Of a stretch of 64,000 nucleotides of DNA, positions 57,519-63,349 are shown piece by piece. A program made the translations under genes and the position numbers. Below the pieces are notes generated by a model. That model made no database searches, was not told the origin of the DNA, and worked only from the letters and a program-made list of their open reading frames with translations. This DNA is from a virus (Duplodnaviria; Caudoviricetes), in the IMG/VR virus record IMGVR_UViG_3300033066_001296, positions 15,846-79,845 of that record. The stretch is one strand, 5' to 3'. Every line of letters begins with the position of its first letter. The stretch's first letter is position 1.

Positions 57519-57533
57519 AGAAAGGAGAGGGTA

Positions 57534-57764
57534 ATGCGATACTACGCAGTGCAGTTCTGCTGCAAGAGGGCCGGTTGGACAACTCTGGAACATCTCGGCT
57601 TCAAAAAGCTCCACGAAGCTGTGAAAGTTCTTCAGGAACTCTCGAGCCAAAGGCCCTATTTCGCGATGAGAACTCACCAGATGCCAAAGAGCTGGGCACC
57701 CTCTCCTTGTGAGGGGGATGTGATCGAGGTTGCCAAGGAGACCATGGACAAATGTCATTTCTGA
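57534..57764 (+). CDS. Hypothetical protein
   Basis: 76 aa, AAGGAG RBS. Confidence 0.55.
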   Translation: MRYYAVQFCCKRAGWTTLEHLGFKKLHEAVKVLQELSSQRPYFAMRTHQMPKSWAPSPCEGDVIEVAKETMDKCHF

Positions 57765-58096
57765 CAAGTCACCACGGATCTTACATTCACGACTATGAAA
57801 AGTCTTGCAACCTCAAACAAATCGCGACTCTCAGCCGGGAGGGTGCGGAGGATGTGCTCCGTGGGAGCCCCTTCGTCGATCCCAGGAACATCCGATGGGG
57901 TTCTGAGTACCTCTTCATGAACAAGGGGTGGTACATCGTCGCCCACAACGCGAAAGAGGATACCTGCGACATCCTCTACCTTGCCGATGGTAGGTACTAC
58001 CTCTGGCAAGCATCGCCCGCTTCCAGACTCCTCCAAGAGATCAACCGCTATCGGGATAATCCAATCACAAGCATCGAGCAGATAAGGGTGAGGTAA
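57752..58096 (+). CDS. Hypothetical protein
   Basis: 114 aa. Confidence 0.55.
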   Translation: MSFLTSHHGSYIHDYEKSCNLKQIATLSREGAEDVLRGSPFVDPRNIRWGSEYLFMNKGWYIVAHNAKEDTCDILYLADGRYYLWQASPASRLLQEINRYRDNPITSIEQIRVR

Positions 58097-58103
58097 TCCT
58101 CTG

Positions 58104-58331: not shown

Positions 58332-58847
58332 ATGGGCATCGTAGTGCAAAAAGTCGCAGAGCTTCTCAACTGCACGAAGGGGGGAGTATTGATCCTTTCT
58401 GGACTTCCGGGCTCTGGTAAAAGCAAGCTCGCCAACGAGCTTTCAGAGCAGCACGCGAACACTCGCGTGATCTCCTCCGATGATTACTTCATGCGGAATG
58501 GAAAGTACGAGTTTGATCCAAGAAAGCTTGGAGAAGCTCACGATCGGTGTTGGGAGAGCTTCCTTCGAGAGTGCGATCGTTGGGACTCTTGGAGACTGTC
58601 TGATGGGCTGCTCATCGTGGACAACACGAACACCTCTCCGTTCGAGCTCGCCCCCTACGTGAGATACGCAACGGGGTGCGGAATTCCTACGCTTACACTC
58701 TTCGTGAGCCGTTCGTTCGAGTGGTGTGCTCGCGATCAGACACACGGGGTGTCTATCGAGACCATGCAACGCATGGATCAGAACATCACACGTACGCTCA
58801 AGGACTTCCCTCGGTATTGGGATCGCAAGATCTGGAGTTGGTCATGA
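58332..58847 (+). CDS. P-loop nucleotide/polynucleotide kinase (AAA_33, N4BP2-like)
   Basis: ILSGLPGSGKS...ISSDDYF...YEFDPRKLGEAH...LIVDNTN...THGVS.ETMQRM. Confidence 0.85.
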   Translation: MGIVVQKVAELLNCTKGGVLILSGLPGSGKSKLANELSEQHANTRVISSDDYFMRNGKYEFDPRKLGEAHDRCWESFLRECDRWDSWRLSDGLLIVDNTNTSPFELAPYVRYATGCGIPTLTLFVSRSFEWCARDQTHGVSIETMQRMDQNITRTLKDFPRYWDRKIWSWS

Positions 58848-59068
58848 AAGTCATCGAAACACTCTACGAAACGATCAAGGACTCTGCCGTCGGGGCGGTG
58901 GGATCGTTTGTCGCGAAGAAGGTTCGCGACAAGATCACAGAACGCCTCGAAGAGACCGATTGGGAGAGGTTGCAAGCCAACCTCCGCAAGCGGGTCGAAG
59001 AAGCCAATCGGGCCAAGGCTCAGCAGAAGCCCAACTACATCAAGGTAACGAGGTTGGACAAGCAATGA
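58844..59068 (+). CDS. Hypothetical helical protein
   Basis: 74 aa, ATGA overlaps. Confidence 0.55.
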   Translation: MKVIETLYETIKDSAVGAVGSFVAKKVRDKITERLEETDWERLQANLRKRVEEANRAKAQQKPNYIKVTRLDKQ

Positions 59069-60345
59069 ACGGACAAACCTACAAGGTCGTGACCGAAGCT
59101 CTTCTGGCCGCATTCCCCTCTCGGAGTGCATTGAGTAGAGCGCTCTTGTTCGGCTGTGAGCTTCGGCTCAACGAGATTGCTGGAGATGGTATCCCTCTCC
59201 CTGCGGTTGTCGGTGAGCTCCTCACCTACATGAACTCCCAAGGAGTCGCTGCAACCGTGCTCAAAGGGCTTCTGAGCCAGAATCCCCTGAACCCGAAACT
59301 CCAGAGCGCCGTTGCTCTGGTTACGGGATCGCCCATCGAAGTCACAACCCCAACCCAAGAAAGCACTCCTACAGTGAGCAACGCCAATCAGAAGATCCAC
59401 AGCGTACATCGTATGGGGCTTCTCGCCGTGCTCTGTCTCGCGCTCAAGGCTCCGAGCGAAGAGGTGGAGGGATTTCTCGATGAGCTCATCGAGGAAGACA
59501 CCACCTACAAGGGGCTCGCCGACATCGACCGCGACACCATCTCCGATGCGGCACGAGCCACCATCAAGGGGGTCAAGGCGATCCAGATCAACAACGCCGT
59601 GAAGGTTCTTCAGCTCTTCGGACCCGAGATCAAGGTCTCGGAGAAGGGGAGGCTCAACATCGTCAAGAACGAGCTCACAGGCGAGTGGGAAGTCTCCTCG
59701 CGCACGACAGACGCCGAGGATGGCACGCTCTACAAGCCTGTGGAGTTCCCGAAGCCCATCGTCGGTTGGTATGACGGGAAGACATACCCGATGGGGGCTC
59801 TCGTCGATGACAACGACCTCCCGCTCACAAGCGAAGGCATCGAGTCTCTCCTTCAGAGGAACTACCAGATGGGGGCGCACCCGTGGTGGTCCAGAAACCT
59901 CGGGAACTTCTCCGTGGTGGACCTCTGCCGCGCTCTGAAGGACGGAAAGCAACCCGTTCAGATCTTCAAGATCCTCATCGACCCGCTCAGCAACTTCTGT
60001 CTGCGTGAGCAGGACTGCCAGATCTTCATCGAGAAGATGAAGACGGCGGTGCCCAAGAACACAGATGCGACGAGCACCACTCAATCGTTCGAGTGGACGC
60101 GAGAGAGGAAGATCGCGCTGCGAAAGGCTCTGGCCAAGCTCTTTCCATCGAGCTCCAAGCTCAGGACCCTCGCATCCGACTCTGCACTGAACACATCGAG
60201 GGTCGATTTCAACGGTGCGGAGGAGAACATCGCCTTCTCCATCATCCAGGAAGCGGAGGCGGCACAGAAGCTCGACAGGCTCTACGCGGTCGCCCTCTCG
60301 GAGTGGCCCAACTCGACCATCCTCCGTGATGTGAGGCTCGCGTGA
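59065..60345 (+). CDS. Protein with N- and C-terminal Effector-Associated Domain 1 (EAD1)-like domains
   Basis: N: EALLAAFPSRSALSRAL...RLNEIA...VVGELLTYMNSQG...LSQNPLNPKL; C: LRKALAKLFPSSSKLRTL...IAFSIIQEAEAAQKLDRLYAVALSEWPNS. Confidence 0.75.
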   Translation: MNGQTYKVVTEALLAAFPSRSALSRALLFGCELRLNEIAGDGIPLPAVVGELLTYMNSQGVAATVLKGLLSQNPLNPKLQSAVALVTGSPIEVTTPTQESTPTVSNANQKIHSVHRMGLLAVLCLALKAPSEEVEGFLDELIEEDTTYKGLADIDRDTISDAARATIKGVKAIQINNAVKVLQLFGPEIKVSEKGRLNIVKNELTGEWEVSSRTTDAEDGTLYKPVEFPKPIVGWYDGKTYPMGALVDDNDLPLTSEGIESLLQRNYQMGAHPWWSRNLGNFSVVDLCRALKDGKQPVQIFKILIDPLSNFCLREQDCQIFIEKMKTAVPKNTDATSTTQSFEWTRERKIALRKALAKLFPSSSKLRTLASDSALNTSRVDFNGAEENIAFSIIQEAEAAQKLDRLYAVALSEWPNSTILRDVRLA

Positions 60346-60656
60346 GTAAGGACTACGCAAACCTCTTTTCTTGGCTTGCCAAGCAAGATGCGAGCAAACC
60401 CCACATTCAAGAGCTCATCGATCTGATCGGGGCCTCGGTTGAGGCGAAGCAAGCCGCGGAGAACTTCGATCGTGCGATGGGCATCGCCGAAGCGACCGTG
60501 GATAAGCTCAGAGCAGCCTCAGAGGAGCTCAACAAGCTCAAAGAGGAGCGTGCAATCCTTGCGGAGATGCTCGGAACGGTCTCGATCCTCGATGCCGTGA
60601 AGGAGCTCAGGGAGATCGCTCGAAGCATCCCCAACGACCCTCCGGGTTTGGACTAG
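60342..60656 (+). CDS. Hypothetical coiled-coil protein
   Basis: 104 aa, GTGA overlap. Confidence 0.6.
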   Translation: MSKDYANLFSWLAKQDASKPHIQELIDLIGASVEAKQAAENFDRAMGIAEATVDKLRAASEELNKLKEERAILAEMLGTVSILDAVKELREIARSIPNDPPGLD

Positions 60657-60868: not shown

Positions 60869-63349
60869 GTGAGGTGCCTTGTGAACATCGAAGAGATCGT
60901 CAGAAATCCGACATCATTTAGAGTGGAGAAGCTCTCCGCTACTGAGTACGAAGAGCTCTTCAATGCTCTCAAGGATCGCTACAACCCTCATGTGAAGTAC
61001 CGCGGAGGGGGCGGTGGTCTGATCCTCTGTCGTGCAGAGCTCATAGCTGGCAGTTCCATGCCACACGATACGGACTGCTACTGTCGTGGGCGTCTGATCT
61101 ACGAAACAGTTGCGACCTCGGGCTGGTTGCGCGAGCACAACGAGACAATGGAGAGAGCCAAAAACCTGAGAGCCACCATGGAAAAAACTGCAATCGACAA
61201 ACTCAGAGATCTCGTCGTCAGAAACTCAAGCACAACGTGGATTGGTGTCGACAGGTTCTCGGAGAGCGTGACCTTCGTTCTCCGAAACGAACAAGGTCAT
61301 TACTTGTACAGTGCTGACCTCAAAGATCCCAAGACACAAATCGCTGTTGCCAACGCTAACAGCATCGGATCTTGGGACAGCTCTCTGTGGTCAAACGGGA
61401 TCGGCAGCGAACTCAAAGCATTTTGGTCCACGATCCGTTGGGGCTACGATGCCTTCCCAAAGGATGCGTTGAGTTTCACGTTCAAGGATGGTGTCATCAC
61501 CTACACCAACGCGAAGGGCGAGAAGTTCAGTGAGCCAGTCTGTGTAGTGGATTCTGCTCACAAATCGCAGTGGTCAACGCTACCCACTACCGCAGCAAGT
61601 GCGACTCCCCCACTGACTCACAAAGCGTTGATCGAGAAGAGAGACATCCTTGGGCTCATTACGAAGTTCAAAGATGGCCCCCTGGAGATCTGCCTTGTCG
61701 ATCCGGGGCACTCACACTACGACCCCACGCTGCTCAACATCGCCGATTTCCTGAAATCTCTGTCCGGTTTCAACTGGATTGATGGTTTCAACACGGATTC
61801 TAGAGTGCAAGAGTCGTGCGGGCTCTTCCGAGAGATCAAAGCTCGGCTTGAGTGTAACGAGCTCAAGTTCAAGCCAGAGTGCGTCCGACTCACCATCTTC
61901 TACGATGGAAGCTATCGAGTAACTCGAGTTCCTGGTAGCCCTGCGGGTGTCACAAAAGGTCTTGAGGGCATTCGCAGACTCAAGGAATTTCTCGTGGATG
62001 CCACCCTCGCAGGTCAGTTCAAAGCCTACGTGACCTCGGAAAACCCCACCATCGAGGGGGCTTTGGCACTCTTGGATGGAAAGAGGATCAGCCTGTCGGG
62101 TACTGTGGGCATGGAGGCAGAAGGTGCGGTACTCGATAATCGAGATCTTGATCGGTACGCTTGGAACGATGACTTCTGGAATACGGTCATCAGGAGTGAA
62201 TCGGGTGGTACGGCTCTTCGATGGCTTCGCACATCGAACCGGGGTGATCACATCCGATATGCGCTCGTCTATCAGAGCGCAGAGCTCATCGAAATGGTGG
62301 GGCACGATGGAAAGCAGATCCGAGTCCGCTTCAAAGACCTCTTCGATGCCAACACTGCGGTTCTGATTCGATACAACCCAACCACGATCCAAGAGGCGCT
62401 CAGTCTGCTCGCAGTGGCTCCCCTTGAGCCCGAGAAGTGCATCGATGCCGCTGCGCCCATCTTGGATGGGATCACCGTCACGCTCAAGGGATATCCCCAC
62501 GTCGCGCGCCCAATCCGATGGGAGGCGTTCCAAGAGCTCTTCCATTCGGGGTGTCCGGTTTGGGATAAGGTTGTGCAGGATCGTAGGCCCAATCAGATCA
62601 ACGGAGATCAGATCTCGGACATTTCCTACTACCTTGCCGGATTTCCTGAGCTCTACAGGGAGCTCAGTCACATCACGTTCAATCTCTCCCGACGAGAGGT
62701 CATTCTCACAAACATGAAAGGTGTGTCCGTAGTCTGGACGCACACTCAATTCACCCACAACCGCAAGCCCGTAGAGTTCCCCGCAACAACCGTGAAAGAA
62801 GAGGCTCCCATGGCAACTCCCAATTCCAATGATTCGCTCGTCAACTTCGTGAACAACGCCCGTCGGGATGGTCGCAAGATGGCCACTCGCATGGCAGGCA
62901 AGCAGATCGTCAAGGCGATCCAGGAACCGCTCGTGGCTGCACTCGCGGCGCAGCTCGGACCCGGAGATGAGGCCCTCAAGGCGAAGATCGCGCTGTTTCT
63001 CGCCACGGACATCGGCAAGGCTCTTCTGGGCGGTCTCGTCTCTGCGGGCCTCTCTGCGGCCAACGGGACGATCATCAAGAAGTCCGATCAGATGGTGATC
63101 TGCGCGGAGCTCGCCGAGGACATGAAGATCGAGGCGGGTGCCGTGGCGATGGATGCCGTGGTCGATGTGATCATGGGACCGGCGCGCAGCATCATCACCG
63201 GGACGATCGCCTCCCTCGCGGAGAGCAATGGCAATGAACAGATCGCGCCTCCCGAGCCTCCCGCAGCGGGTCTCGGGAACGGGAACGGAGAGAAGCTCAA
63301 CATGAACGTCGAAGAGTGTGTGGCCGAGAAGGTCGAGGTGGTCAAGTGA
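60869..63349 (+). CDS. Large hypothetical protein
   Basis: 826-aa ORF with no recognised motifs. Confidence 0.75.
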   Translation: MRCLVNIEEIVRNPTSFRVEKLSATEYEELFNALKDRYNPHVKYRGGGGGLILCRAELIAGSSMPHDTDCYCRGRLIYETVATSGWLREHNETMERAKNLRATMEKTAIDKLRDLVVRNSSTTWIGVDRFSESVTFVLRNEQGHYLYSADLKDPKTQIAVANANSIGSWDSSLWSNGIGSELKAFWSTIRWGYDAFPKDALSFTFKDGVITYTNAKGEKFSEPVCVVDSAHKSQWSTLPTTAASATPPLTHKALIEKRDILGLITKFKDGPLEICLVDPGHSHYDPTLLNIADFLKSLSGFNWIDGFNTDSRVQESCGLFREIKARLECNELKFKPECVRLTIFYDGSYRVTRVPGSPAGVTKGLEGIRRLKEFLVDATLAGQFKAYVTSENPTIEGALALLDGKRISLSGTVGMEAEGAVLDNRDLDRYAWNDDFWNTVIRSESGGTALRWLRTSNRGDHIRYALVYQSAELIEMVGHDGKQIRVRFKDLFDANTAVLIRYNPTTIQEALSLLAVAPLEPEKCIDAAAPILDGITVTLKGYPHVARPIRWEAFQELFHSGCPVWDKVVQDRRPNQINGDQISDISYYLAGFPELYRELSHITFNLSRREVILTNMKGVSVVWTHTQFTHNRKPVEFPATTVKEEAPMATPNSNDSLVNFVNNARRDGRKMATRMAGKQIVKAIQEPLVAALAAQLGPGDEALKAKIALFLATDIGKALLGGLVSAGLSAANGTIIKKSDQMVICAELAEDMKIEAGAVAMDAVVDVIMGPARSIITGTIASLAESNGNEQIAPPEPPAAGLGNGNGEKLNMNVEECVAEKVEVVK

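Follow-up and report, generated by a model that had tools for sequence, protein, structure and literature searches.

The window analyzed here is a 64,000-bp stretch (bases 15846-79845) of a 79,845-bp IMG/VR virus record, the ~90% complete genome of a tailed phage. It contains a gene for a protein of 426 amino acids (aa), P0001, in which two copies of effector-associated domain 1 (EAD1), of different subtypes, flank a conserved core. EADs have been proposed to bridge trypsin, caspase or TIR effectors to NTPase hubs by homotypic contacts (PMC7159879), and no report of a phage-encoded EAD1 protein was found in the literature searched. The two domains are genuine, both adopt a death fold, and between closely related phages the C-terminal one is replaced as a unit while the core is kept. 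These features raise the possibility, which we judge to be evenly balanced, that P0001 is a phage counter-defense protein that reaches host EAD1 hubs by way of exchangeable plugs.

The gene (Table 1) begins at an ATG that overlaps the stop codon of the preceding gene (ATGA), with a GAGG ~12 nt upstream, and gene callers predicted an open reading frame (ORF) of matching length on four other contigs (423 or 426 aa). The original prediction had noted an EAD1 pattern at both termini of what it took to be a phage protein, and on both counts it was right. Pfam EAD1 (PF19955) matches the whole protein in two stretches (E 4.3e-23), and each end on its own scores well above the gathering cut-off (47.9 and 42.2 bits against 24.2 bits). 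The surrounding record, for its part, encodes tail sheath, tape-measure, major head and portal proteins on the minus strand and, on the plus strand, an intein-laden large terminase, a class II ribonucleotide reductase (RNR), three tRNA genes and many small ORFs. The N-terminal EAD1 finishes in an NP.NP.L motif. The 233 aa between the two domains have no match in Pfam, and the whole protein has no match in NCBIfam and no significant match in PHROGs. A six-frame search of the 79.8-kb record returned exactly two EAD1 matches (48.5 and 41.4 bits), both inside P0001; the same search in 14 control genomes returned none. With no cognate EAD1 found on a second protein of the record by this search, a cognate copy would have to reside in the host.

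Of particular interest is the dissimilarity of the two ends. BLAST detects no similarity between the N- and C-terminal EAD1 domains, and a single-sequence search with the N-terminal domain matched nothing other than the protein itself. Comparison of the N- and C-terminal blocks of the family at the level of profiles nonetheless unites them (98.9% probability, E 1.7e-17), and we therefore recognize two diverged EAD1 subtypes, A and B. A symmetric form of the cross-linker first proposed from the sequence is unlikely because the two domains are not alike.

An AlphaFold2 model built on an 18-sequence family alignment (mean predicted local distance difference test score, pLDDT, 89.7) divides the protein into three well-folded units split by two disordered linkers, the second of which is disordered at aa 331-341. 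The predicted template modeling score (pTM) of the full protein is low (0.47), which fits independent domains on a string. The end domains are six-helix death-fold bundles (aa 3-87 and 346-425, pLDDT mostly >90). Structural neighbors were sought by VIA-align among 48,161 PDB representative chains, and those of both end domains are almost only CARD, DD, DED and PYD domains together with a bacterial death-like domain (74-87 residues aligned), at Z-scores of 5.3-7.5, which are modest for helical bundles. Neighbors of the C-terminal EAD1 include a CARD (9frr: Z 7.5, root-mean-square deviation 2.8, 77 residues aligned), the FADD DD (3ezq, Z 7.2) and the bacterial death-like domain (8ss1, Z 7.2); the death-fold neighbors of the N-terminal EAD1 have Z-scores of 5.3-6.1. 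The assignment to the death fold is secure because the list of neighbors is homogeneous and the Pfam match stands beside it.

Modeled alone, the core (pLDDT 92.8, pTM 0.74) comprises three sub-domains: a SAM/HhH-like bundle of five helices (aa 113-184), a beta-rich part (aa 187-255) and a second helical part (aa 256-328). It has no match in Pfam, NCBIfam, PHROGs or PADLOC; Foldseek returned nothing at E<=0.001 from PDB and BFVD, a sequence-profile search of PDB gave no relevant match and the ESM Atlas no usable one. The best VIA-align result (Z 5.3) is with the HhH-bearing helical domains of DNA glycosylases and with SAM-like domains, and concerns sub-domain 1 only; the best Foldseek result, with the SAM-like n-NafY domain (probability 0.85), is at noise level. 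These weak matches span core residues ~11-125 only and say little on the beta-rich and C-terminal helical sub-domains. No fold is assigned to the core because its best similarities lie at noise level. The notion that the core consists of cryptic EAD copies was rejected, the three sub-domains giving profile-profile probabilities of <1% with the EAD1 ends. Three residues (H115, Y148 and W208) are invariant across the core family. In distant relatives the beta-rich part carries an invariant CxxC...C plus a fourth Cys or Asp, an element that looks zinc-ribbon-like; the beta-rich part of P0001 has lost all of these cysteines.

Features of this kind could belong to a hijacking adaptor, in which the core binds a target, for instance a host factor, DNA or a competing element, and the plugs deliver effectors linked to host EAD1 (proteases, TIR proteins or others) to it for the benefit of the phage. 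Such a protein would follow the same logic of a constant module plus a variable EAD by which bacteria recruit effectors (PMC7159879). Two EAD1 subtypes could bind two different partners, sub-domain 1 of the core weakly resembles HhH/SAM-like modules that bind nucleic acids or proteins, and distant relatives keep the zinc-ribbon-like CxxC...C. We nevertheless consider this explanation unlikely: none of the structural similarities rises above noise (Z<=5.3), there is no candidate target, and active host death effectors would usually harm the phage.

The core defines a small family. A HMMER search with the core alone of 1.84 billion representatives recovered 19 proteins; a search with a profile of the N-terminal EAD1 added members, and family hidden Markov models run over all collected proteins yielded ~27 clusters. 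Thirteen of these have the arrangement EAD1(A)-core-EAD1(B), eight are core-EAD1 and a few are truncated. None of the ~27 clusters holds a core without EAD1, and all 18 members compared with Pfam EAD1 match it. Subtype A is also found at the C-terminus, in P0015 and P0020. Judged from these sequences, the EAD1 plugs differ among members in number, position and subtype around a core that stays constant. The original prediction had set aside the middle of the protein as an unknown core of ~250 aa. In so far as it matches no database this still holds; however, it is the sole constant element of the family, with EAD1 number and subtype varying around it, and is probably not a spacer.

Nearly all family members come from metagenome assemblies. 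A tblastn search of P0001 and P0010 against 50,697 GenBank phage records found no homologue, two scans of 185,579 species genomes found no relative, and 401 genomes of one phylum gave EAD1 matches only, with no match to the core. Genomic contexts were examined for relatives at L003, L007, L010, L012, L013, L015, L016 and L017 (L009 was too short for judgment). Most are phage-like and one, L013, is bacterial-looking. L003 is syntenic with the window; L007 includes genes for an SNF2 helicase, a dNMP kinase, a dCMP deaminase and NT5C; L012 lies on a 200-kb IMG/VR record; at L015 and L017, small genes follow one another in the same direction; L016 belongs to a 96-kb contig that also encodes an RNA ligase, an aminoacyl-tRNA synthetase and a tRNA_bind protein; and the phage-like call for the short L010 relies only on the synteny that it shares with L016. 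At the last two loci (L016:4755-12534 and L010:560-2356) the family member, a distant one, is found 2-3 genes from the gene with the tRNA_bind domain, a synteny that recurs in large phages; the L016 member is also near the RNA ligase and the synthetase, which is of class I. The core-plus-one-EAD1 protein P0015 is encoded on a 74-kb contig of an NCBI assembly (72% GC) with mixed gene strands and, as neighbors, a Ser/Thr kinase-TPR pair and a CAP-domain gene, a context resembling a bacterial chromosome.

The position of P0015 suggests that the phage might carry a copy of a cellular EAD1-linked sensor or effector that functions as in bacteria, for example for superinfection exclusion or abortive infection directed at other phages, and phages do carry defense genes. 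Several points speak against this. The ~90%-complete record has no match to an integrase, the contexts are mostly phage-like, the members are nearly all metagenomic, and neither the species genomes (both scans) nor the 401 genomes of one phylum contained a relative or a core, respectively. PADLOC likewise returned no match for the EAD1 protein, and only weak P-loop or chance matches for its neighbors. We regard a defense role of this cellular type as very improbable.

In close relatives the plugs are swapped, whereas the core is retained. The 90% cluster of P0001 contains 13 sequence variants from many samples. DNA of the sister contig L018 is 94.9% identical to the window up to position 60042 and 95.4% identical from position 60328, with no blastn match between the two (60043-60327). 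The protein that it encodes, P0029, correspondingly resembles P0001 closely in the N-terminal EAD1 (93% identity) and the core (95%), whereas linker 2 (12%) and the C-terminal EAD1 (52%) are far less similar. The exchange of the C-terminal EAD1 allele is thus a domain-precise cassette replacement between phages that are ~95% identical. Haplotypes of the N-terminal EAD1 reassort independently of the rest of the gene, with two alleles present within single samples, and near-identical phages differ in their EAD1 alleles while their cores remain 95-100% identical. Smaller changes also affect the C-terminal EAD1: the sequence is hypervariable at positions 398-400, and in a wastewater run the last loop of the domain carries an in-frame insertion of 27 nt (9 aa) behind 60300, corresponding to the 435-aa variant P0024. 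Against the ~95% identical sister contig, the ratio of nonsynonymous to synonymous changes (pN/pS) is 0.19 for the N-terminal EAD1 and 0.22 for the core; of the 51 differences in these two parts, 33 are found at third codon positions. Outside the exchanged cassette the gene is under purifying selection. A 441-aa ORF on the minus strand (59035-60360) is almost co-extensive with the EAD1 gene; given the pattern of substitutions in the plus frame, it is a shadow ORF.

The exchange bears on a simpler account, in which P0001 is an adaptor-only decoy or cross-linker: the two EAD1 domains alone would act, by sequestering or bridging EAD1 proteins of the host, with a passive spacer between them. Two genuine EAD1 domains on flexible linkers would suit such a role, and viral death-fold decoys, tandem as well as single, are known: the phage 133 CARD-only protein is one, and vFLIP MC159 is among the structural neighbors. 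A passive spacer, however, would hardly be expected to be well folded (pLDDT 92.8), to be the only element present in every member, including the eight clusters with a single EAD1, or to stay 95-100% identical while EAD1 alleles are exchanged. The two domains are also of different subtypes. On this evidence a decoy composed of adaptors alone seems improbable to us.

A role outside immunity also needs to be considered: the death-fold ends might self-assemble, or scaffold a phage process (a replication or transcription factory, for example) while the core binds DNA. Death-fold domains do polymerize, the core includes an HhH-like sub-domain and, ancestrally, a zinc-ribbon-like element, and several loci have neighbors connected with nucleotide metabolism and tRNA. 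Yet the ends match a specific family of conflict-system domains, EAD1, rather than a generic helical bundle; their dissimilarity argues against simple homopolymerization; and exchange of a single end fits turnover of partner specificity better. We give this explanation very little credence.

Counter-defense, our preferred reading, gains from the cellular proteins that most resemble the phage domains. The best-matching ones comprise three EAD1-Trypsin_2 proteins, a bDLD1-EAD1-Trypsin_2 protein, an adaptor-only bDLD1-EAD1 protein, an unassigned EAD1 protein adjoining a TIR protein, and a protein with three EAD1 domains, EAD7 and FHA. Their EAD1 domains are 25-39% identical to those of the phage (25-35% for those closest to the N-terminal EAD1, which belong to bDLD1-EAD1 and EAD1-trypsin proteins). 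The set matches the EAD-coupled conflict-system repertoire of Kaur et al. (PMC7159879). Two of the genomes concerned illustrate how such proteins are organized. In the 4-Mb genome G002 the 210-aa bDLD1-EAD1 protein (P0047, L019:10001-10633) is found amid housekeeping genes, and an EAD1-Trypsin_2 effector adjoining an astacin-like metalloprotease is encoded on another contig (L024:670-1755, minus strand). Together the two look like a minimal cellular EAD1 network; G002 (~60% GC, the phage 54%) serves as an example of such a network only, not as a host. In genome G194 (L030:883-2590, minus strand) the unassigned EAD1 protein (286 aa) adjoins the TIR-domain protein (270 aa), and a second EAD1-like match is present in the neighboring frame: a candidate EAD1-coupled TIR module.

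We envisage the following mechanism. The protein would be organized as beads on a string: EAD1(A), a flexible linker, the ~220-aa core, a second flexible linker and EAD1(B). After infection it would dock on EAD1-bearing proteins of the host through two different plugs, and docking would place the constant core at the host immune assembly. Recruitment or activation of effectors would there be prevented, amounting to counter-defense. The plugs would set specificity and be swapped between phages as cassettes; the core would be the payload, a blocking or binding module. Both the binding to host EAD1 and the inhibitory outcome are things that we infer. Several observations support this view: bona fide EAD1 domains with a death fold at both termini; closest cellular EAD1 proteins that are typical parts of conflict systems, in line with the principle of EAD coupling (PMC7159879); a small core family in which every member has at least one EAD1, varied around a constant core; contexts that are mostly phage-like, with P0001 itself encoded in an accessory block of a record without an integrase match; and a domain-precise swap of the C-terminal EAD1 together with reassortment of the N-terminal one, in a gene otherwise under purifying selection. 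There is, in addition, the precedent of the phage 133 CARD-only protein (PMC10312443). A bolder version, namely that in phages of environmental bacteria these proteins form a dedicated family of "plug-and-payload" anti-apoptosis proteins, their core steered to host death-fold signaling hubs by plugs of different specificities that populations of one phage swap as cassettes to track host EAD1 variants, is put forward tentatively, as we think it somewhat more probable that it will fail than that it will hold.

A number of points weigh against counter-defense. That EAD1 domains bind each other homotypically is a prediction from computation (PMC7159879). The cellular EAD1 domains are no closer to the phage domains than those of phage family members are to each other, and so do not indicate that the phage has recently mimicked any one protein of a host; nor can a cognate host EAD1 be named, as the search for a host gave no identification. 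The core has no recognizable inhibitory or enzymatic feature, and the presence of P0015 on an apparent bacterial chromosome means that it may have a cellular role too. With a pN/pS of 0.19, the N-terminal EAD1 shows no positive selection, and that idea was rejected.

As to the host, it had been suggested that EAD1 would hint at the group to which it belongs. The host is not readable from the domain: near-identical DNA is found in wastewater, riverine and freshwater runs from ~9 studies. Structural genes did not identify it either, capsid and portal proteins being only 23-30% identical to those of Streptomyces, Ralstonia and Komagataeibacter phages. For the class II RNR the nearest relatives are genes of actinophages (37-41%); these phages dominate the collection searched, a database bias that makes the hint a faint one. 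The region also occurs as contigs in runs of RNA libraries, which was not taken as transcription since such libraries may contain DNA.

The EAD1 gene is located in an accessory block of tRNA, kinase and small ORFs (Table 1). The 74-aa protein encoded immediately upstream shares 46% identity with its same-position counterpart in L003, more than the 37% between the EAD1 protein of that locus and P0001; the gene is kept beside the EAD1 gene only in the closest clade and is absent from more distant loci. For the 104-aa downstream protein, conservation with the L003 neighbor is limited to the first 29 aa. The AAA_33 kinase gene is a presence/absence polymorphism: contigs of two runs join 58324/58329 to 58843, the gene is missing from the sister contig L018, and run X3 holds both forms. 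Because it is present or absent among sister genomes the kinase is no obligate partner, and a functional link with the EAD1 gene was rejected. The stretch 57529-58099, which includes a gene for a 114-aa protein (57752-58096), likewise has no counterpart in L018. The accessory block is mosaic at the level of whole genes.

Table 1. Coordinates of P0001, its parts and the adjoining genes (positions in the window).
Feature	Position	Strand	Basis or remark
Gene for the EAD1-core-EAD1 protein (P0001, 426 aa)	59065..60345	+	ORF; Pfam EAD1 twice; purifying selection
N-terminal EAD1, subtype A (aa 2-84)	59068..59316	+	PF19955, 47.9 bits alone, E 1.8e-12
Linker 1 (aa 89-110)	59329..59394	+	Thr/Pro/Ser-rich; disordered at aa 94-101 (pLDDT <50)
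Conserved core (aa 111-330, ~220 aa, three sub-domains)	59395..60054	+	Model and family conservation
Exchangeable cassette: linker 2 and nearly all of the C-terminal EAD1 (aa 327-421)	60043..60327	+	Sister contig L018
C-terminal EAD1, subtype B (aa 343-423)	60091..60333	+	PF19955, 42.2 bits alone, E 1.1e-10
Small P-loop kinase gene (AAA_33 / polynucleotide-kinase-like)	58332-58847	+	Block directly upstream
Upstream gene (74-aa helical protein)	58844..59068	+	Translationally coupled to the EAD1 gene
Downstream gene (104-aa protein, no assigned function)	60342..60656	+	Start overlaps the stop of the EAD1 gene

No NTPase, vWA or VMAP core component and no known effector is encoded near the EAD1 gene, the neighbors being the AAA_33 kinase and unassigned proteins, and the record has no match to AAA_5 or DUF2201. 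A scan for promoters and terminators around the gene gave results at chance level only. Further downstream on the plus strand (60869-63349) is a gene for an 826-aa protein that ends in a Gly/Ala-rich hydrophobic tail; it has no match in Pfam, PHROGs or PADLOC and is kept (822 aa) in sister contigs. Two sister contigs (L004:13203-14434 and L005:10506-11734) encode, ~8.8 kb downstream of the EAD1 gene, a protein with DUF2201_N and DUF2201 (vWA-like / metallopeptidase), which is not in the record of the window, whose end comes earlier. Many EAD1 systems are built on vWA-MoxR pairs, hence the interest of a vWA-type protein in these contigs.

To our knowledge, EAD1-coupled conflict systems are known only from comparative genomics, and we know of no experimental demonstration of EAD-EAD pairing or of a role in defense against phages. 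A phage protein with two different EAD1 domains is a natural bait for host proteins that pair via EAD1, and it allows a direct test of whether EAD1 systems act against phages. If P0001 is an inhibitor, viral mimicry of death-fold adaptors, represented by one CARD example, would reach into the much larger EAD network, and the anti-defense repertoire would gain a new conserved protein domain; the cassette swap suggests a route by which specificity may evolve. Should the plug-and-payload reading be true, these proteins would be the bacterial-virus counterpart of vFLIP-type inhibitors and the first experimental handle on homotypic EAD coupling.

Several known systems invite comparison. In animals, vFLIP/MC159 (tandem DED) and the pyrin-only proteins of poxviruses enter host death-fold assemblies homotypically and block caspase activation. 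Like these decoys, P0001 is a virus-encoded protein with the fold of a host immune adaptor, and MC159 and a vFLIP are among the structural neighbors of its C-terminal EAD1 (Z about 5.2-5.5), a resemblance in fold only. In vFLIP/MC159, however, the two DEDs are packed as a rigid tandem with no domain between them, whereas the EAD1 domains of P0001 are ~250 residues apart on flexible linkers and, unlike in adaptor-only viral decoys generally, hold a conserved core of ~220 aa between them.

Among cellular proteins, P0047 (bDLD1-EAD1) also has two death-like adaptors on one polypeptide, presumably bridging two networks, and its EAD1 ranks with the cellular domains nearest to the phage N-terminal EAD1 (35% identity). 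In contrast to P0001, its gene lies on a bacterial chromosome, its two adaptors come from different families and it has no core domain. The bacterial EAD1 systems at large (vWA-MoxR-VMAP, iSTAND, GAP1 GTPase, TRADD-N and NucA-peptidase; PMC7159879, PMC8195603) share with P0001 the same sequence family, small all-helical terminal domains and the pairing of a constant module with a variable EAD. Their EAD1 proteins are cellular and fused to known effectors, usually with the cognate EAD1 on a core component that is adjacent or in the same genome; P0001 is phage-borne, has both copies on one polypeptide and no conflict component nearby, and its core belongs to no known family.

Of the validated analogues, the CARD-only protein of Acinetobacter phage 133 comes closest; it weakens CARD-dependent gasdermin defense (Wein et al., bioRxiv 2023, PMC10312443). 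That protein consists of 141 aa with one CARD-like domain alone, detected by structure alone; P0001, by contrast, has two sequence-recognizable EAD1 domains of different subtypes flanking a ~220-aa core, and its function is here only predicted. Both are nonetheless encoded by phages, and both are built on a death-fold adaptor of the kind that hosts use for the recruitment of effectors.

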